59,043 nucleotides of DNA from Nanobdellota archaeon (GTDB taxonomy: Archaea; Nanobdellota; Nanobdellia; Woesearchaeales; GW2011-AR4), in contig JBBSVT010000007.1 in the NCBI GenBank assembly GCA_038046685.1, forward strand, positions 1-59,043, in the 5' to 3' direction. Positions 4,111 to 15,006 of this stretch are shown here, in pieces. The position numbers and the translations under genes were made by a program. Positions within the stretch are counted from its first letter, which is position 1. Each line of letters starts with the position of its first letter. The notes beneath the pieces are model-generated. The model did no database searches and had not been told where the DNA came from. It worked only from the letters and a program-made list of their open reading frames with translations.

Positions 4111-4240
4111 GAAATATTATAATATTCTCATTTTTAAATAAGTTTCGATAGGTTTGAAACAGATTGAAGTTATGGATTAATCAACAATATTTAAATAGTG
4201 AAAAAATTTTCACTCCTTATTTGAAATTATTGTCTTGAAA

Positions 4241-5590
4241 ATGATCCTCGAGAAGCTCAGCGATTCATTAAAAAACACCCTGCAAAAGATTGCAAAATCA
4301 ATTTTTGTAGATGAGAAGCTGATTAACGAGTTGGTAAAAGACATTCAAAGGGCTTTGCTGCATTCAGACGTTAATGTAAAGTTGGTTTTTGATTTGACGG
4401 AAAAAATAAAAAACAGGGCTTTGGATGAAGAACCGCCACGAGGGCTAACAAAAAAAGAACAGCTATTAAGTATAGTGCATGAGGAATTGGTAGCTTTCTT
4501 GGGTAAAGAACAGCGCAAAATAGAGATTGGGCAAAAGCCATTTAAAATAATGCTTGTTGGCTTGTTTGGCTCTGGAAAAACCACAACAGCAGGCAAATTA
4601 GCCAGATTCTATTCGAAAAGAGGCTACAAAGTCGCATTAGTTGGAATAGACATTCACAGGCCTGCTGCGATGGAGCAAATCGAGCAGATAGGAAAGCAAG
4701 CCAATGTGAAGGTATTTTTAGACAAAAAAATTAAGGATCCAATTGAAATTTGGAACAAATCCAAGAGCGAATTCGATGATTTTGATGTCTTAATTATAGA
4801 TACTGCCGGCAGGGATGCGCTTTCTAAAGATTTAATTAGCGAAATTGAAGAGGTTAATGACGAAATAAAGCCAGATGAGAGATTGTTGGTTATTTCCGCC
4901 GATATCGGGCAAGCTGCTCAAAAACAGGCAGAGCAATTTCATAAAAGCTGCGGAATAAGCGGCATCATTGTTTCCAAGATGGACGGAACTGCCAAGGGCG
5001 GAGGCGCGTTAACTGCATGCACAGTCTCAGGAGCTCCGATCATTTTTATCGGAGTTGGAGAGAAAATAGACGAGCTTGAGCAGTTTAATCCGGAAGGATT
5101 TGTTGGAAGGCTTCTTGGCATGGGTGACTTGGAAGCGCTCTTGGAAAAGGCAAAAGAAGTCATAAAAATAGAAGATGCAGAAGACCTTGGCAAGAGATTC
5201 TTGAAAGGCGAGTTTAGTTTGATTGACTTATACGAGCAAATGGAAGCAATGAGCAAAATGGGACCTTTGAGCCAAATTGTTGATATGATTCCGGGTTTTT
5301 CCAAACTTAAACTGCCAAAGGACATGCTGAAGGTCCAGGAAAATAAATTGAAGGATTGGAAGATTGCAATGCAGTCGATGACGAAAGCGGAGCTTGAAGA
5401 GCCTGAAATAATAGATGCTTCAAGGATTGAAAGAATCTCAAAAGGCTCAGGAATTCCAACACCCGAAATCAGAGAATTAATTAAGCAATATAGGCAGAGC
5501 AGAAAACTGGTCAAAATGTTTAAAGGAAACAAAGGAGATATCAGCAAAATGATGAAAAAGTTTGGGGGGAGGCTGCCGATTGGGATGTGA
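4241..5590 (+). CDS. srp54: signal recognition particle 54 kDa protein (SRP54/Ffh GTPase)
   Basis: GTPase motifs GLFGSGKTTTAGKLA, DTAGR and SKMDGTAKGG are present, with a Met-rich M domain at the C-terminus. The first ATG is at 4241; the track starts at a TTG at 4235. Confidence 0.95.
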   Translation: MILEKLSDSLKNTLQKIAKSIFVDEKLINELVKDIQRALLHSDVNVKLVFDLTEKIKNRALDEEPPRGLTKKEQLLSIVHEELVAFLGKEQRKIEIGQKPFKIMLVGLFGSGKTTTAGKLARFYSKRGYKVALVGIDIHRPAAMEQIEQIGKQANVKVFLDKKIKDPIEIWNKSKSEFDDFDVLIIDTAGRDALSKDLISEIEEVNDEIKPDERLLVISADIGQAAQKQAEQFHKSCGISGIIVSKMDGTAKGGGALTACTVSGAPIIFIGVGEKIDELEQFNPEGFVGRLLGMGDLEALLEKAKEVIKIEDAEDLGKRFLKGEFSLIDLYEQMEAMSKMGPLSQIVDMIPGFSKLKLPKDMLKVQENKLKDWKIAMQSMTKAELEEPEIIDASRIERISKGSGIPTPEIRELIKQYRQSRKLVKMFKGNKGDISKMMKKFGGRLPIGM

Positions 5591-5795: not shown

Positions 5796-6656
5796 TTAAA
5801 AAAACTCACTTAAACTTTTATTTGCTCTTGGAACATCCAAATTAAATGGGGGGATTTTTACATCAGTTATTTTATCAAAATTACCTTCTTTCCCCGGAAA
5901 ACATGAAAAATTAAAATTTCTGTATGCTGAATCAGAATCATTAAAAGTTGAACATTTTTTTATTATATGAGACAGTATTGTAGAGATATGGTACTTACCA
6001 TCTTTCTCAGACATACCATGAATTGCGTTATAAGAAGAACCTAATAATAAATCGGTTAATTGTAAAAGAGTACATTCGTCCTCACTAATTGCAGCATTTT
6101 GTAATTCTGCTGAACTTTCAACAATTATTAAACTTTCAAAATTAACTTTAAACTGATTCATATATTTTAACAAATATTCTTTTTTATTATGTGGGTCGTT
6201 TTCTGTCTCTTTTGGTTCTGTTCTTCTGTGCAACGTTATCTTTGCCACTACATCCTTATTCTTTATTTTTTTATGGAGAGTAGATTTTAATGACATCAAC
6301 AAAAAACGATTATATTTGTGATGTTCTTCAGTGAATTTATCGTTTTGGAAATAGGGCGAGGAACAATCTATCTTATGAAACTCAAAAAAGAAGTCCCCAT
6401 TGTTCATTTTTATTAAGTTTTTAATCCAATTCATCGATGTTTGGATTTTGCCAGAAGTAATATGTCCAGATAATTTTTTATATGTTAAATCAGAGTTACA
6501 ATTATTTTTATTTTTTATCTCTTTTAATTGCTTACATAAAGTATCTATTTTATGTTCATAGATAAGAAAAACTCCAAAACATAAATGATTATTGGATGTA
6601 GTTTCATCTACAAATACAGATAATTTTTTCTTATGTGAGTCATCGTATAACTTCAT
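5796..6656 (-). CDS. DUF3800-like protein, last gene of the RM-like operon
   Basis: The 286-aa ORF lies 37 nt downstream of the preceding gene on the same strand. N-terminal VFVDETTS and C-terminal LLQLTDLLLGSSYNAI resemble the two DUF3800 signature blocks (DESG ... LQlaDlia). Confidence 0.45.
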   Translation of the reverse strand: MKLYDDSHKKKLSVFVDETTSNNHLCFGVFLIYEHKIDTLCKQLKEIKNKNNCNSDLTYKKLSGHITSGKIQTSMNWIKNLIKMNNGDFFFEFHKIDCSSPYFQNDKFTEEHHKYNRFLLMSLKSTLHKKIKNKDVVAKITLHRRTEPKETENDPHNKKEYLLKYMNQFKVNFESLIIVESSAELQNAAISEDECTLLQLTDLLLGSSYNAIHGMSEKDGKYHISTILSHIIKKCSTFNDSDSAYRNFNFSCFPGKEGNFDKITDVKIPPFNLDVPRANKSLSEFF

Positions 6657-6693
6657 AAATGTGGAAAGAAATAGGTATATTATAAAATTAATG

Positions 6694-7176
6694 TTAAATT
6701 TTCGGCGTCAAGCTGGAATAATCTATACAACTTCTTACCTTATCCCATTTTGCTATTTGCATAAATTTATTTGTTTTTGTTCCAAATTTTAATACATCCT
6801 CTCGTCTGAGAACATTAAACAAATGTGATAATCTGCCTAATCCTTTAGACGAAACTAATAAAGATTCTATCGGATCTATTAATTGAGTGTATCCCCAAAG
6901 CTGTCCTAAATCTTTAAGAGTTAATTCAGTATCTTTTACTTCAACAAAAACAAGTTTAAACTCATCGCCTCTTTTCAAAATTCCTACAACATCAACTTTT
7001 ATTTGCAGTCCTATCGCTTCTTTGCATTGAATTCCCTTACTTTTCAAGACTACATCTAAATTTCTTCTTGAAGTTTCAAAAGTAGTTTCGACAGTATGAC
7101 CTTTGTATTTATCTGTTAAATAATTCTGCAACCATTCTTTTATTTCAGGATATAGTTTTTCTTCTTCTTTACTCAT
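6694..7176 (-). CDS. small PD-(D/E)xK-fold protein, candidate nuclease subunit
   Basis: The 160-aa ORF overlaps the upstream gene by 8 nt. IKVDVVGIL...KLVFVEVKD gives a D-x(n)-E-x-K arrangement on predicted beta strands. Confidence 0.45.
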   Translation of the reverse strand: MSKEEEKLYPEIKEWLQNYLTDKYKGHTVETTFETSRRNLDVVLKSKGIQCKEAIGLQIKVDVVGILKRGDEFKLVFVEVKDTELTLKDLGQLWGYTQLIDPIESLLVSSKGLGRLSHLFNVLRREDVLKFGTKTNKFMQIAKWDKVRSCIDYSSLTPKI

Positions 7177-8113
7177 CGTAACCTAACTCCTTTGACATAT
7201 CTTTCCAATTATCAAAATGTTTTCTCATTTTCGATGGCAGTTTCGTGCTTTTTTCTTCTGGATGGTTGGGCTTTTTCCTGTTTATCTCTTTCGTTTCCCA
7301 ATAAAATTTATGATGTACTTCCGAAATTGGCTTATCTCTATATTTTTTAGAATCCTTTGATGCTTCTTTCCAGTTTTTTCTGTTTAAGTCAGCAAATTTT
7401 TTAAGAATTTTATTTTTATGGTCAATATTAAAACCAACTTTCTCAAATTCTTCAGCCCAAACTTTAATTTGATGTTCCTTATTCCAGAACTCTTTTGAAC
7501 CTTCATTATATTTTTTCAAATTTGGATCAACTATATTTGGATGAGCAAATCTGATTGTTTGAACTGGAACTTCCAACTCTTTTAACAGGTTTGCAATATC
7601 TACGCATAAGTCCCAGTTTACCATTATCTCAACATAAACTCTATTTTCATAATCTTTCCATGCAACATTACTTTTTCTTATATGTGCTGTAACATCGGCA
7701 ACTCCTCTTAAAAATTCCAACTTTACATCTTTTGTTGATGAAAAAATTTCTGCTGGTATCCTAAAATCTCTCCAACTAACATTATTTTTTAAATATGTAT
7801 TAATTGTTCTTATGAGATAATCACCATTAGGTTTTGAAAAAGAAATATGAGCTAAATTTTGTCTTGATGTGTCCCATTCCATATCTGTTCCAACAAGAGA
7901 TTTTAATCTGCCTACAATATCCAATAAACTTGACTTTACTGATTGTTGTGTATTTTCTCCTTCAATTACTAAGTTTTTATGAGGTATGTCAATAATAATC
8001 TCAGTATTTCTGTTTCCTCTAATTACTTGCCCTTTTCCAACAATCATCCCCAATAAGTAAGCTATATCTGGATTTAACATTTTATCACTTCCTAAAGATG
8101 AGTATGAACTCAT
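7169..8113 (-). CDS. LAGLIDADG-like two-motif protein lacking the catalytic acidic residues
   Basis: In the 314-aa ORF, AYLLGMIVGKGQV and, about 110 aa later, EFLRGVADVTAHI...YVEIMVNWDLCVDIANLLKELEVPVQTI mirror the double LAGLIDADG architecture. The catalytic Asp positions are K and T. The true start may be the internal Met at 8080 (MLNPD), which would remove the overlap with the MTase gene. Confidence 0.4.
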   Translation of the reverse strand: MSSYSSLGSDKMLNPDIAYLLGMIVGKGQVIRGNRNTEIIIDIPHKNLVIEGENTQQSVKSSLLDIVGRLKSLVGTDMEWDTSRQNLAHISFSKPNGDYLIRTINTYLKNNVSWRDFRIPAEIFSSTKDVKLEFLRGVADVTAHIRKSNVAWKDYENRVYVEIMVNWDLCVDIANLLKELEVPVQTIRFAHPNIVDPNLKKYNEGSKEFWNKEHQIKVWAEEFEKVGFNIDHKNKILKKFADLNRKNWKEASKDSKKYRDKPISEVHHKFYWETKEINRKKPNHPEEKSTKLPSKMRKHFDNWKDMSKELGYDE

Positions 8114-8885
8114 GAACTTTATTTACTCTGAAAACGAACGGATAACCAAGAGGTCTCATGTTGTTGTATTCTTTTTGCCTGTCCCAAATGATAATATCAT
8201 CTAATTCAAAACCAATTTCTTGCATTTTGTTTACTACATCCATGTGGAATGGATAAAACTTTGCTTTTTTTCTTATATCCATCACAACAACAATACAATA
8301 TTTTCCTTTCTTTAAAACTTTGTAGACTCCTTCAAATCCTGTTTTGAGCTTATTTAAAAATTCTTGATAATCTGCGATATTTCCTAAATCTTCCTTTGAA
8401 TCGCTATAATTTCTTATCTCTTTTCCATCAGCAGACCTTTTAGCGTTTAGAATATCCCAATATGGCGGAGATGTAATGACTAAATCAACAGAATTTTCTT
8501 TAAGTGTTTTAGGAATATCAAATATAGTTTTATTATAAATTTCAGGCTTTATCAAGTCCTCTGGCTTTTGTTCTAAATTTAACTGAGTTTCTTTTATTCT
8601 ACTTTCGGATAATTTAATGTATTCTTTAGAAAGCTCGAACCCTATTCCCTTTCTACCTAATTTATAGGCAGATACAACTGTGCTTCCGCTTCCTAAAAAT
8701 GGATCTAAAACAACCTCTCCTTTATTTTTGGTATGAATCTGAATTAATCTTGATATTAATTGTGTTGGAAACATTGCAGGATGTTTTAGCTTTCGTTCTC
8801 CGTTGGTTTTCTCAATATCTTTCCAAATACTAAAAGAGTATTGTAACCAAGTTTTCCCATCCAAATTATTCATTTTTTCGCCCAT
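8085..8885 (-). CDS. DNA methyltransferase, N4-cytosine or N6-adenine (N6_N4_Mtase family, SPPY type)
   Basis: The 266-aa ORF has HPAMFPTQLISRLI...VVLDPFLGSGSTVVSA (AdoMet motif I region) at the N-terminus. It has DLVITSPPYWD (motif IV) about 80 aa later. Confidence 0.85.
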   Translation of the reverse strand: MGEKMNNLDGKTWLQYSFSIWKDIEKTNGERKLKHPAMFPTQLISRLIQIHTKNKGEVVLDPFLGSGSTVVSAYKLGRKGIGFELSKEYIKLSESRIKETQLNLEQKPEDLIKPEIYNKTIFDIPKTLKENSVDLVITSPPYWDILNAKRSADGKEIRNYSDSKEDLGNIADYQEFLNKLKTGFEGVYKVLKKGKYCIVVVMDIRKKAKFYPFHMDVVNKMQEIGFELDDIIIWDRQKEYNNMRPLGYPFVFRVNKVHEFILIFRK

Positions 8886-8886
8886 T

Positions 8887-10554
8887 TTACCAAAAACTCC
8901 TCTCTGACATAATTTGCTTTAAAGCAAAATTTACTTTATTTTGTTCATTTTTAGTCATACCGTACAATTTATAGACTTTCTTGTCTAACTCAGACAATTT
9001 TTCTTTTAAGTTTTCTTTGTTAATTTTTTTTACAATGTCCATAATCTCTTTTTGAATTTTTTTACTGGCTTTTTTGATGGGAATTTTTCCCAGATAAACT
9101 TTATCAGTGTGCATCGTAAGTTTAGATTTATTGTAAACAGCATATAGAAGATAAAAATTGATTAATTTTGAATTTAGCAAACCATAAATGTAATCTAATT
9201 GATAAGAGTTATCTTTCAAAATGATATTGCTGACAGTATCAAAATTAAGATTTCCTTTTTCATCTATGGATGAAATAATCCCTGCTTCGCTTGAAAAGAT
9301 ATTTTGTAGAATTATTTTTCTCTTTTGAAATTCGTCTATTTTTGAAGAATTGCTCTTTAGTTTGTCTATATCAATAAAAAACCCATTCGAATAGGAAGAT
9401 TTAGAGATATCATTTCCTTTAATTATGGAAATGCTCTCCTTGCTTTTTGATTTAGATATTATCTGAGAATTTGGGCTTATTGAAAGTCCTCTAAAAATAT
9501 CCGCAATACTTTCTAAATTTTCTCCTTTGATTTTTTCTATTAAATCATAATAGGTTTTATCTTCAAACATTAAGAAAGTGTTATATTTCTGGAATATCTT
9601 TTGAGGCACATAGAACTCTTTATTATTATCAAATAAACGAATCAAAACTTTATTATTTTTTATTGATTTTTTTTTGCTTGTTTTCTGCACAAATAAAACT
9701 ATTTGCTCTCCTCTGACATCCTTAAAACAAGTCCCAAGATCAAAAATGTGCAGTATTTTTGAATTGCTTAATAAGAATTCCCTTAATCTTGAATATGAAT
9801 TAACTCTAATTAATGTTTTAGGCAAAACAAAAGCCATCACTCCTCCATCTTTAAGAAGTTCGTAAGATTTTGCAATTACCAAAGACGCCGCATTTGTGCT
9901 TCCATTTGCGATTTGAGAAAAGAAAGACTCGTTTACATCATAATCTCTTTTGTTTTTTAAAGTTACATATGGAGGATTGCCAATTATAAAATCAAAACCG
10001 CCTTCATTAAGAATTTCTGAAAACTCTTTTTTCCAGTTAAATGCTTTTTTATCAATAAACCTTTTTTCAACGATGGAGTTTCCAATTTTAATATTTTTTT
10101 CAAGAATATTTAATGAGTTTGAATCTTGACCATTTCTTAACCATAAGTTTATTCTTGCTATTTTAGTTGCCGAATTATTTAAATCAACACCATAAATATT
10201 ATTTAGGGCATTTGAGTTTATCTGTTTTAGATGATTATATGCCGTTACCAAGAAAACGCCACATCCGCAAGTTGGATCTAAAATTTTAGAATCTTGTTCA
10301 ATATTAAGAAAATTTACAATATAATTAACTATCTCTTGTGGAGTATAAAATTGTCCCAAATCTTTTTTTTCTTGCTCTCTTATCAGTTTCTCAAACAGAA
10401 CTCCTAAAGTATCTTCTTTTATTTTTGTTAGTTGCTCTTGTTCAATCTTATTTACAACTTTGTTTATTATTTTATCTTTATATGGTAAAGACTCTAAAGT
10501 ATCTTTGCTTAAATAAAAATTCTCTTGTGTAAGTGGAACTAAAACAGCATCCAT
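8887..10554 (-). CDS. gamma-class N6-adenine DNA methyltransferase (Eco57I/TaqI-like) with a TaqI_C-type specificity domain
   Basis: The 555-aa ORF carries FYTPQEIVNYIV, ILDPTCGCGVFLV, FDFIIGNPPYV and C-terminal IYGLLNSKLINFYL. Confidence 0.9.
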   Translation of the reverse strand: MDAVLVPLTQENFYLSKDTLESLPYKDKIINKVVNKIEQEQLTKIKEDTLGVLFEKLIREQEKKDLGQFYTPQEIVNYIVNFLNIEQDSKILDPTCGCGVFLVTAYNHLKQINSNALNNIYGVDLNNSATKIARINLWLRNGQDSNSLNILEKNIKIGNSIVEKRFIDKKAFNWKKEFSEILNEGGFDFIIGNPPYVTLKNKRDYDVNESFFSQIANGSTNAASLVIAKSYELLKDGGVMAFVLPKTLIRVNSYSRLREFLLSNSKILHIFDLGTCFKDVRGEQIVLFVQKTSKKKSIKNNKVLIRLFDNNKEFYVPQKIFQKYNTFLMFEDKTYYDLIEKIKGENLESIADIFRGLSISPNSQIISKSKSKESISIIKGNDISKSSYSNGFFIDIDKLKSNSSKIDEFQKRKIILQNIFSSEAGIISSIDEKGNLNFDTVSNIILKDNSYQLDYIYGLLNSKLINFYLLYAVYNKSKLTMHTDKVYLGKIPIKKASKKIQKEIMDIVKKINKENLKEKLSELDKKVYKLYGMTKNEQNKVNFALKQIMSERSFW

Positions 10555-10700
10555 TATTTAACCCCTTTCTTAACTTCTTTTTCCATATAATTTTGAAATT
10601 GCTTTGAAACAATCCATCCTTTTTTATCGCACTCCTCTTTAAATTTATCATAAATTTCAGAATCCACAAATAAAGTTACTCTTTTTTTAACCATCATCAT
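10554..10700 (-). CDS. 48-aa ribbon-helix-helix (CopG/Arc-like) leader protein of the RM-like operon; not in the ORF track
   Basis: The reverse strand reads ATGATGATGGTT...GTTAAATAA, giving MMMVKKRVTLFVDSEIYDKFKEECDKKGWIVSKQFQNYMEKEVKKGVK. Its TAA stop shares an A with the ATG of the 555-aa MTase (TAATG). It is about 51% identical over 43 aa (hand alignment) to the small ORF at 55238-55390. The pattern is beta strand, helix, helix. Confidence 0.6.
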   Translation of the reverse strand: MMMVKKRVTLFVDSEIYDKFKEECDKKGWIVSKQFQNYMEKEVKKGVK

Positions 10701-10706
10701 CCCCTT

Positions 10707-10722
10707 TATGTAAGCTTACATA
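10707..10722. promoter_or_regulatory. perfect 16-bp palindrome TATGTAAGCTTACATA just upstream of the RHH gene (candidate operator)
   Basis: The palindrome was read directly. It ends 6 nt from the first ATG of the RHH ORF and abuts the G-rich AAGGGG element. Confidence 0.4.
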
Positions 10723-10862
10723 AGATTATTAACACATCCCTATATAAATCTTACGCATACTTGTCCAGTGGCAAGTGCTAAAAGACGCCCTAGATGTTCT
10801 TTTTAGAAAAGAACCAAAACAAGACACTCCTTCTATCTTCTTTTTATAAAAAGAAGCAAAAA

Positions 10863-10909
10863 ACGGAATTCCCCCCTACGACGAAACGACGGACTGAAAA
10901 TTGCCCCTT
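10863..10909. repeat. right boundary repeat block of the RM-like island
   Basis: acggaattcccccc (10863-10876) and gaaaattgcccctt (10896-10909) are reverse complements of the left-block elements. The direct copy of acgaaacgacg lies at 10881-10891. The block is preceded by a hairpin at 10796-10814 and a perfect 20-nt palindrome cttctttttataaaaagaag at 10837-10856. Confidence 0.6.
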
Positions 10910-11243
10910 GATACTTATTCTTGATGGCTCACTGTGTTCGCTTGATTGAATACGCCCCTGAAATTACTTTGATTTTTTGCCTTCGGCATCGTTGCACTAA
11001 AAATCAATTCCTCCAAGTATTCGGACGAATAGAACAGGAATTTAACGGTTCCGAAACCTTGCAGGTTTCTCCACCCAAATTTTGCCCCATCTCTGAAAAT
11101 TTCTCCAGCTCTGTTCGGATTTTCCAGCTCTGAACTGCGGTTCGAGGGAAAATCCTCACGAGGTCGAAATTTTCGAGGGGTCAAAACTTCGTTAAATTCC
11201 GATGTTAAATGCAATTAAATTTAAGTTTTCCTTTTTTATGAAT

Positions 11244-13280: not shown

Positions 13281-13320
13281 TCCCAAAATCTTTATATAAT
13301 ATCCTATATTTTTGGATTTT

Positions 13321-15006
13321 ATGATTAAAAATGTCGAAAGCAATGATTTCAATGATGTATTTTGGGCAGACCAGGCAGCTGATGAAATAATAGACAAAGT
13401 GGAGAAAACACCGCTTTTGAAAGAGCTGACAAAGAAGCATGGCTATATTGTTTATGACGAGAAAACTCCTTCAGGTACTATTCACATTGGATCCGGAAGG
13501 GGATGGGTAATACATGATGCAATTGCAAAGGCTTTGAGAGAAAAAGGCGCAAAAGCAAGATTTGTGCTGAGCAGTGATGACATGGATCCTTTGGACAAGA
13601 TGTCCAAGGAGCTTAGCGAAGAAGAAAACAAGAAGTACATTGGGGTGCCATTTAGGTACATTCCAAGCCCAGCGAAAGGCTACAAAAGCTTCGGGGATTA
13701 TTATTTTTCGAAATGCACTGAGCTGTTCCCGGAATTTGGAATAAATGCGGAGTTCGAAAGCACTGGAGAAGAATATGAGAAAGGCTCTTTCAACAAAGCC
13801 ATAAAAATTGCGCTGGATAATGCAAGCAAGATTCAAAAGATATATGCTGATTTATATGGAAAAGAAGTTGATGCCGCACACAAGCTTCCATTCAATGTTA
13901 AATGCCCTAAATGCAGCAAAATTTCAACAACAGCAGCATTGGAATGGAACAAGGAAAAGGAGATTGTTCATTTTGAATGCAGGGACAATGTTGTCGAATG
14001 GGCAAAAGGATGCGGCTGCAATAATTGGATTTCCCCGTATGATGGAAATGGAAAATTCCCATGGAAGGTTGAGTGGGCAGCAAAATGGGGGGCTAAGCAC
14101 GTTGTTGCCGAGACAGCCGGAAAGGACCATTTCACTAAAAACGGCTCAAGGACTGTTGCTTGCAGAATAAGCGTTGATGTTTTTGACTACCCGCCTCCTT
14201 ACCCTTCCAACGGCTATGACACTGGATACGGATATGAGTTCTTTACAGTTGGCGGCAAAAAAATGTCTACATCCAGAGGGCAAGGCTTGGGCTTCGCTGA
14301 TTCAGTAAATTATGCTCCTGGGAAAATGCTCAGATTTGTGCTGGTAAGGACAAGGCCAAGTGCAGCTATCGACTTCCAGCCTTATGGCTCTAATGATATA
14401 ATTTTGCTTTACGAGAGATACGACCAGGCTGAAAGGGCTTATTTTGGAAAAGAGGATTTGGGAAAAAAAGAGAATGCAAGGCAAAAAAGGATTTACGAGA
14501 TTAGCCATGTAGAAAAAATTCCCCGGAGAATGCCTCCTCAGGTTAGCTTAATCCATTCTTCAATCCTGGTGCAGGTTTTTGAAGACGAGAAATTGATACT
14601 TAAATCACTGCAAGACACAGGGCATTTGCCTGAAGATGCCACTAAACCTGAAATTCAATATGTAAAGGAAAGGCTCAACTTTGCAAAAAAATGGGTTAAT
14701 GAATTCGCCGAAGAGCAATACAAATTCCAGCTTCAGAAAAATGTTCCCAGGGATATTGCGCTAAGCCAAAGGCAAAAAGAAGCATTGCATTTTTTGGCAG
14801 ATAAGTTAAAAAAAGGCAAATGGACAGAACAAAGCCTGTTTAATGAACTTTATAATATTGCAAAAAATGAAGTGATACTTGAGCCTAAGGAACTCTTCAA
14901 GGCAGCCTATAAAGTCCTATTGAATAAGGAAAAAGGGCCAAAGCTAGCCCCCTTTATTCTTGCTTTGGGAAAAGAGAAAGTTGCAAAGCTGTTTGAAGAG
15001 GTTTAA
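13321..15006 (+). CDS. lysS: class I lysyl-tRNA synthetase
   Basis: A HIGH-type motif (TIHIGSGRG) and a KMSKS-type motif (KMSTSRG) are present. Length and layout are typical of archaeal-type LysRS-I. The first ATG is at 13321. Confidence 0.9.
   Translation: MIKNVESNDFNDVFWADQAADEIIDKVEKTPLLKELTKKHGYIVYDEKTPSGTIHIGSGRGWVIHDAIAKALREKGAKARFVLSSDDMDPLDKMSKELSEEENKKYIGVPFRYIPSPAKGYKSFGDYYFSKCTELFPEFGINAEFESTGEEYEKGSFNKAIKIALDNASKIQKIYADLYGKEVDAAHKLPFNVKCPKCSKISTTAALEWNKEKEIVHFECRDNVVEWAKGCGCNNWISPYDGNGKFPWKVEWAAKWGAKHVVAETAGKDHFTKNGSRTVACRISVDVFDYPPPYPSNGYDTGYGYEFFTVGGKKMSTSRGQGLGFADSVNYAPGKMLRFVLVRTRPSAAIDFQPYGSNDIILLYERYDQAERAYFGKEDLGKKENARQKRIYEISHVEKIPRRMPPQVSLIHSSILVQVFEDEKLILKSLQDTGHLPEDATKPEIQYVKERLNFAKKWVNEFAEEQYKFQLQKNVPRDIALSQRQKEALHFLADKLKKGKWTEQSLFNELYNIAKNEVILEPKELFKAAYKVLLNKEKGPKLAPFILALGKEKVAKLFEEV

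Follow-up and report, generated by a model that had tools for sequence, protein, structure and literature searches.

Computational evidence for a Type II restriction–modification cassette with a proposed LAGLIDADG-fold specificity component in a Nanobdellota archaeon

The 59,043-nucleotide stretch analysed here (hereafter the window: positions 1 to 59,043 of contig JBBSVT010000007.1, GenBank assembly GCA_038046685.1, from a Nanobdellota archaeon of the order Woesearchaeales) carries five closely packed minus-strand genes at positions 6694–10700, and these quite likely form a mobile Type II restriction–modification (RM) cassette with an asymmetric, Type IIS-like target site and an endonuclease made of two polypeptides. 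From 5' to 3', the genes encode a 48-residue protein, the DNA methyltransferases M1 and M2, and two proteins here called L and S (Table 1). L and S together very probably constitute the restriction enzyme, with L likely serving as its non-catalytic specificity subunit, and we see an even chance that cleavage relies on the geometry of a pair of S units. On computational grounds, the cassette is a Type II RM system with an endonuclease architecture that appears undescribed and a fold new to the specificity components of such enzymes. A first-pass annotation made from the sequence alone had proposed this division between a recognition and a cleavage subunit within an operon of two methyltransferases; both upstream genes are confirmed by Pfam as encoding DNA methyltransferases, and the proposed division is supported computationally by the adjacency of L and S in 106 of 106 loci, by the varying methyltransferases around them, and by natural L-S fusions.

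The fold of L was apparent from structural modeling but not from family searches. Its open reading frame (ORF) is real and can be read as 314 codons, the length first assigned to it, but nearly all homologs start at the second ATG, at position 8080 (96% query coverage, 303 amino acids), and the translated protein is probably 303 rather than 314 residues long. The family comprises 185 matches, all unnamed or "hypothetical"; L has no Pfam match even at E≤1 and none in the NCBIfam or PADLOC scans, and the family profile has no match among PDB sequences at E≤10. An AlphaFold2 model built with family alignments (predicted local distance difference test score, pLDDT, 92.5; predicted template modeling score, pTM, 0.91) shows the LAGLIDADG secondary-structure pattern twice. 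This is followed at the C terminus by a conserved, His- and Trp-rich extension of ~60 residues. When the model was compared with the PDB using Foldseek, the best 50 matches were all LAGLIDADG proteins (probability 0.96–1.00, mostly 1.00; E-values down to 7e-6), including the bI3 maturase (ranks 1 and 2), I-AniI, PI-SceI, I-DmoI, WhiA (ranks 17, 33, and 39), I-OnuI, and I-SceI. Sequence similarity between L and LAGLIDADG proteins is marginal: an hhalign comparison with I-CreI aligned 17 columns, covering motif 1 only, at E 0.019.

The catalytic residues at both positions of this fold have been lost in L. The two LAGLIDADG-like motifs seen on first inspection are 115 residues apart, with the stretch YVEIMVNWDLCVDIANLLKELEVPVQTI following the second, and their catalytic positions hold K16 and T131, the Lys and Thr reported initially; K16 falls opposite the catalytic D20 of I-CreI. 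Among 192 distinct L sequences, the penultimate position of motif 1 is K in 131, N in 60, and R in one, while that of motif 2 is T in every sequence, so neither position is ever acidic. D129, the conserved Asp of motif 2 that is not catalytic, shows no variation across the same 192 sequences, and in the model residue 131 is the last of the motif-2 helix. The penultimate acidic residue of each motif is described as essential for catalysis, and WhiA, which has neither, as unable to cleave (PMC3384342). Because both metal-binding acidic residues are lost, L cannot cleave canonically, and because it would then have no catalytic site, all cleavage must come from S. Most invariant polar positions of L fall within domain 2, on alternate residues of its beta-strands (R135, N138, R147, Y149, E151, E202, H203, Q204, and K206). 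Mapped onto secondary-structure elements of the model rather than onto its three-dimensional surface, this pattern is what might be expected of a DNA-facing saddle that reads one conserved short site.

S, on the other hand, retains what L has lost. The D...E-V-K pattern first noted in this 160-residue protein corresponds to D62...E79-V-K81, and these three residues are invariant in 188 of 188 distinct S sequences, together with E5, Q92, and Y96 (the latter two forming a QxxxY motif). The PD-(D/E)xK core has the order alpha-beta-beta-beta-alpha-beta, with D...(D/E)-x-K borne by its second and third strands; in the model of S, D62 is assigned to one strand (residues 63–69) and E79 and K81 to another (residues 72–81). 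The AlphaFold2 model (pLDDT 93.8) is matched by Foldseek to the nuclease domains of PaqCI (the best match), MspJI, Can2, MunI, BamHI, Hjc, and FokI. All 237 matches in the S family are unnamed or "hypothetical," no significant family was found in the Pfam, NCBIfam, and PADLOC scans, and the family profile matched no PDB sequence at E≤10. Judged by its model and its conserved residues, S is a PD-(D/E)xK-fold protein with an intact catalytic triad. Structure prediction, one of the checks put forward with the first-pass annotation, therefore returned a LAGLIDADG fold for L and a nuclease fold for S.

The linkage of the two genes is obligate in the loci surveyed. When one genome from each of 185,579 species was scanned, L relatives turned up in 307 stretches, with hosts that include DPANN archaea, Altiarchaeales, Nitrosopumilus, Thermoplasmata, Clostridia, Treponema, Campylobacter, Bacteroidales, Omnitrophota, and Patescibacteria. 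S lies directly 3' of L in all 85 L-anchored loci, with an overlap of 1–13 nt or a gap of ≤31 nt, and the two genes are also adjacent in 21 of 21 loci found through S, giving 106 of 106 split-type loci overall. The same order is seen on a Lactiplantibacillus plantarum plasmid and in temperate phages. Genomes were also scanned with the S alignment, using patterns so specific that 22 loci came back; within these and the L-anchored loci, S never occurs without L. In the window, the start of the S ORF overlaps the L stop by 8 nt, as the ORF coordinates (7169–8113 and 6694–7176) confirm.

While L and S remain together, their methyltransferases change. Methyltransferases are present in 85 of 85 loci: a gamma-class N6-adenine and beta-class pair, as in the window, in 53; an EcoRI-like N6-adenine and a C5 methyltransferase, sometimes fused as one 700-residue protein, in 24; C5 and gamma-class N6-adenine methyltransferases in five; and a beta-type methyltransferase as the only one found in three. 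Two activities of different chemistry are thus encoded in 82 of 85 loci, and two methyltransferases of varying type point to an asymmetric target. Since L-S is constant while the adenine and cytosine methyltransferase pairs are interchangeable, L-S would be the restriction component for an asymmetric site, and the loci have the gene content of Type II RM systems with such sites, in which the endonuclease genes adjoin two methyltransferase activities. In the window, M1 matches Eco57I (1.6e-33), N6_Mtase (5.3e-32), and TaqI_C (2.1e-13) in Pfam and MTase_II in PADLOC, and M2 matches Pfam N6_N4_Mtase (1.1e-36) and PADLOC MTase_II (2.5e-50). M2-type methyltransferases, where present in split and fused loci, are 47–96% identical to the window M2.

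Several lines of evidence suggest that the cassette moves between genomes. The flanking genes vary from locus to locus; in Lactiplantibacillus plantarum P9, a 6.5-kb plasmid (NZ_CP060181.1) has the cassette as its main cargo, alongside replication genes and a toxin-antitoxin pair, and in a Lachnospiraceae temperate phage (PV036410.1), it adjoins an excisionase. In both of these annotated records (the plasmid from RefSeq, the phage genome from GenBank), L and S are labelled "hypothetical protein." Since L. plantarum P9 is cultured, it offers a tractable host for experiments. Calidifontibacillus oryziterrae ZYK and Treponema socranskii ATCC 35536 are further carrier strains.

Many bacterial loci hold one or two extra genes of 115–160 codons, without a Pfam match, either between the methyltransferase genes and L or on the 3' side of S. 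At this accessory-gene position, Butyrivibrio loci encode a protein of 341–358 residues whose sole Pfam match is the NOV_C domain. Examples of loci with extra genes are L036 (6174–6988), L077 (6042–6995), L027 (5973–6998), and L051 (8373–8744); the window has no such genes.

Natural fusions bear most directly on whether L and S are one enzyme. Among 1.8 billion representative proteins searched with a profile, 357 clusters were related to L, of which ~30 are L-S fusions of 539–557 residues. These consist of an L region (residues ~80–330) with a zinc-ribbon insertion (CxxC...CxxC), a charged linker, and an S domain (residues ~390–550) that matches the S hidden Markov model with E-values of 1e-10 to 1e-28 and has intact catalytic residues; the LAGLIDADG catalytic positions are R/K/H and A/C, again non-acidic. 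The fusions are strong support for L and S functioning as a single enzyme, as well as for S-like units working in pairs, and they speak against a mere regulator role for L. At all 26 genomic fusion loci (L086–L110 and L121), a free S paralog of ~165 residues and a convergent M2-type methyltransferase come after the fusion gene, and an M1-type methyltransferase was detected beyond the M2-type one in nine. The free paralog usually keeps the PD dipeptide but carries N in place of E79, S or T in place of K81, and E in place of Q92; this protein probably serves as a pseudo-nuclease partner. On balance, we favor the interpretation that the split L-S genes and the fusions represent an unrecognized class of Type II enzymes, in which a dead LAGLIDADG specificity module is served by a separate or fused PD-(D/E)xK unit that acts alongside another S-like unit, a pseudo-nuclease in the fused lineages.

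Proteins of 990–1300 residues without a Pfam domain also carry an L-like dead LAGLIDADG domain at the C terminus. Two of these (P0309, locus L176, 306–5736; P0304, locus L177, 1211–6096) each adjoin an N6_N4 methyltransferase and a small PD-X17-ELK protein missed by the S profile, and such proteins may represent a third, larger architecture that uses the same reader domain.

These observations could be accommodated by the following mechanism. L would be a domesticated monomeric LAGLIDADG homing-endonuclease scaffold, stripped of both metal-binding acids, that binds an asymmetric site and probably reads its sequence through the beta-sheet saddle. S, made in step with L by translational coupling, would dock on L, and most likely a pair of S units would bring two active sites to both strands beside the site. 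M1 and M2 would each methylate one strand of the asymmetric site, shielding host DNA, and the 48-residue ribbon-helix-helix (RHH)-like protein encoded 5' of M1 would be the likely transcriptional controller. In its hosts, the system may have an anti-phage function.

Several points weigh against this mechanism. The Foldseek E-values for S are weak (~1e-2), though the probabilities for the top two matches are 0.95–0.98, and hhalign found no similarity between S and the FokI cleavage domain (1FOK; probability 0.2%). In WhiA, the best-known dead LAGLIDADG protein, the LAGLIDADG domain may not bind DNA at all (PMC3384342), and the conserved surface of L could, by analogy, contact protein instead of DNA. 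Moreover, a complex from a fused locus would have a single canonical active site, at odds with a simple picture of two sites for two strands; the fused lineages may instead nick, cut the strands sequentially, or need two complexes. Finally, the invariant polar residues D129, E151, H180, D185, E202, H203, and K206 could form a non-canonical active site in L.

A site of this kind is what a Type IIT enzyme in the style of BtsI and BsrDI would call for, with L nicking one strand at a cryptic non-canonical site and S nicking the other. We consider this unlikely, but several features speak for it: L and S (35.7 and 18.5 kDa) are near the BtsI subunits in mass (38 and 18.6 kDa; PMC1950550), the methyltransferase pair of BsrDI is of the same kind (N6-adenine and N4-cytosine), invariant acidic, His, and Lys residues are numerous in L, and the inactive-looking free S paralog of fused loci implies that a second catalytic site must come from elsewhere. 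However, the canonical acids are missing in all 192 L relatives, the BtsI B motif P57-D58...E72...Q85-R86 finds no counterpart among the conserved residues of L, and L has a LAGLIDADG rather than a PD-(D/E)xK fold, with no ββα-Me-like or PD-ExK-like element in its predicted secondary structure. BtsI and BsrDI are nevertheless the closest functional analogues of L-S: both are two-gene enzymes with a large (~36–38 kDa) and a small (~18.5 kDa) subunit, the small one being a PD-Xn-ExK nuclease that is inactive alone, as S is a PD-(D/E)xK protein, and both act at an asymmetric target with two amino-methyltransferases, where the L-S system likewise has two methyltransferases (PMC1950550). Their large subunits have a catalytic site of their own and nick DNA alone (PMC1950550), so the analogy drawn at first reading is imperfect. 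Membership of L in the family of these large subunits, defined by the motif PD-X13-17-E-X12-QR (in BtsI B: P57, D58, E72, Q85, and R86; PMC1950550, PMC2909958), was rejected, as the motif is missing from the conserved residues and the corresponding region is a LAGLIDADG domain. For the small subunits, in a comparison of motifs rather than of aligned sequences, the catalytic pattern of S resembles that of BtsI A (D65/E78/K80/K82) and BsrDI A (D67/E82/K84/K86), but S has a D-to-E spacing of 17 residues, against 13–15, and no conserved Lys at +4. The D-X16-(D/E)-x-K spacing of S equals that of FokI (D450/D467/K469).

A second alternative, which we regard as very unlikely, is that L is a WhiA-like or C-protein-like regulator of the operon and S a homodimeric Type IIP enzyme with its own specificity. 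In favor of this, an overlap between a controller gene and the restriction gene 3' of it is common, and restriction enzymes of ~160 residues, such as PvuII, do exist. Known C proteins are small DNA-binding helix-turn-helix regulators with an operator upstream of their own gene. L, on the other hand, has 303 residues and no helix-turn-helix domain, and it has no upstream intergenic region, as the gap of a few nucleotides between M2 and L leaves no room for an operator; with its fusion to a nuclease in many genomes, a C-protein role was rejected. WhiA itself provides a precedent for a dead LAGLIDADG protein as a regulator (PMC3384342). Fusions in ~30 clusters and 26 genomic loci would be unexpected for a regulator and its target, however, and the methyltransferase pairs of different chemistry in 82 of 85 loci point to an asymmetric site that a homodimer would not read. 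A separate candidate regulator is also already present in the operon, at the position usual for such a gene: the 48-residue RHH-like protein, rather than L, is the better candidate for its controller. Least probable of all is that L-S is no restriction enzyme but an endonuclease for homing-like transfer or mobility, or else an addiction module, which recognizes a long rare site and thereby spreads or stabilizes the cassette: LAGLIDADG scaffolds normally read sites of ~20 bp, and the cassette is clearly mobile, with locus-specific flanks and carriage by a small plasmid and phages, but L-S always comes with two methyltransferases from groups with short recognition sites among their known members, the methyltransferase type is swapped while L-S is kept, which indicates that many genomic sites need protection, and there is no intron or intein context.

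Compared with other known proteins, the L-S enzyme proposed here would combine familiar parts in an unfamiliar way. The closest structural relatives of L are WhiA/DUF199 and the bI3 maturase, which are likewise monomeric two-domain LAGLIDADG proteins with non-acidic residues at both catalytic positions; unlike them, L belongs to an RM operon, has a nuclease as its coupled or fused partner, and bears the His- and Trp-rich C-terminal extension, and their functions and partners are unrelated to those of L. FokI, PaqCI, and engineered nucleases that couple a DNA-binding module to a FokI-type cleavage domain share the modular logic proposed for L-S, in which a non-catalytic reader is joined to a paired, non-specific PD-(D/E)xK module, but the window form of L-S consists of separate polypeptides and its reader has a LAGLIDADG fold rather than winged-helix or helix-turn-helix domains. 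BspD6I/BstNBI resembles the proposed L-S enzyme in pairing a large DNA-recognizing subunit with a small PD-(D/E)xK subunit that is inactive alone (PMC4081073); its large subunit, in contrast to L, has 604 residues and its own active site, and no BspD6I chain is among the 50 best Foldseek matches to S.

Restriction endonucleases are known to use five folds: PD-(D/E)xK, HNH, GIY-YIG, PLD, and half-pipe. If the reading given here is correct, a LAGLIDADG-derived recognition subunit would be a sixth scaffold among restriction enzymes and the first restriction-enzyme component with this fold, and it would parallel, in nature, the engineered nucleases in which a reader is joined to a separate cleavage domain. 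Selfish endonucleases would then have been domesticated independently a second time, WhiA and the maturases being the earlier case. No such enzyme was described in the full-text literature searched or as a Pfam, NCBIfam, or PADLOC model, a search that did not cover REBASE. A comprehensive 2014 review of Type II enzymes never mentions LAGLIDADG, and the accessible portion of a 2012 review of homing-endonuclease relatives includes no LAGLIDADG restriction enzyme. Because no Pfam, NCBIfam, or PADLOC model matches L or S, defence finders built on these models likely report the methyltransferases only. If borne out, new Type IIS or nicking enzymes and engineerable DNA-binding modules could be drawn from a compact LAGLIDADG reader that recognizes a short asymmetric site and has a detachable nuclease. 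The split, fused, and fused-plus-pseudo-nuclease forms make up a natural series that illustrates how restriction enzymes of several subunits can evolve.

The 48-residue ORF at the 5' end of the operon (MMMVKKRVTLFVDSEIYDKFKEECDKKGWIVSKQFQNYMEKEVKKGVK) falls below the size of standard ORF lists. Its stop overlaps the M1 start codon (TAATG), and its Pfam matches are weak (E ~0.05) and all to RHH families (RHH_5, ParG, and RepB-RCR_reg). It is kept directly 5' of M1 on seven different contigs with archaeal loci of the window type and in one locus of the fused type (L089).

Table 1. Coordinates of the proposed RM cassette and its motifs in the window, with one example of a fused locus
Feature	Position	Strand	Basis
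Candidate RHH-like controller/regulator, 48 aa	10554..10700	-	only weak Pfam matches; conserved 5' of M1
M1, 555-aa gamma-class N6-adenine DNA methyltransferase with TaqI_C specificity domain	8887..10554	-	Pfam, PADLOC
M2, 266-aa beta-class N4-cytosine/N6-adenine DNA methyltransferase	8085..8885	-	Pfam, PADLOC
L, 303-aa two-domain LAGLIDADG fold, putative DNA-recognition subunit (ORF extendable to 8113)	7169..8080	-	AlphaFold2, Foldseek, conservation
LAGLIDADG-like motif 1 of L, AYLLGMIVGKG; K16 at catalytic Asp position	8030..8062	-	translation, hhalign
LAGLIDADG-like motif 2 of L, EFLRGVADVTAH; T131 at catalytic position	7682..7717	-	translation
S, 160-aa PD-(D/E)xK nuclease, putative cleavage subunit	6694..7176	-	AlphaFold2, Foldseek, invariant residues
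Predicted catalytic core of S, KVDVVGILKRGDEFKLVFVEVK, with D62, E79, and K81	6934..6999	-	translation; conservation
Example of fusion gene and free S paralog	L086 1187-2860 and 2857-3354		

The cassette region (window positions 5800–11000) has a guanine-plus-cytosine (GC) content of 27–31%, compared to 36–39% in its flanks, and a tRNA scan, an Rfam scan, and a repeat search gave nothing convincing at its boundaries. The flanking housekeeping genes encode what we take, from a look at their sequences, to be an SRP54-like protein (4235–5590) and a class-I-type lysyl-tRNA synthetase-like protein (13312–15006). The low GC content and the locus-specific flanking genes are consistent with horizontal acquisition of the cassette by the archaeal host. 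Inside the same low-GC stretch, 37 nt 3' of S, lies a gene for a DUF3800-like protein of 286 residues (5796–6656, minus strand; Pfam E 2e-4; PADLOC candidate family PDC-M04A, 1e-4). It was rejected as a component of the system, as it is missing from all 85 other L-S loci, and may be a separate defence or mobile-element gene.

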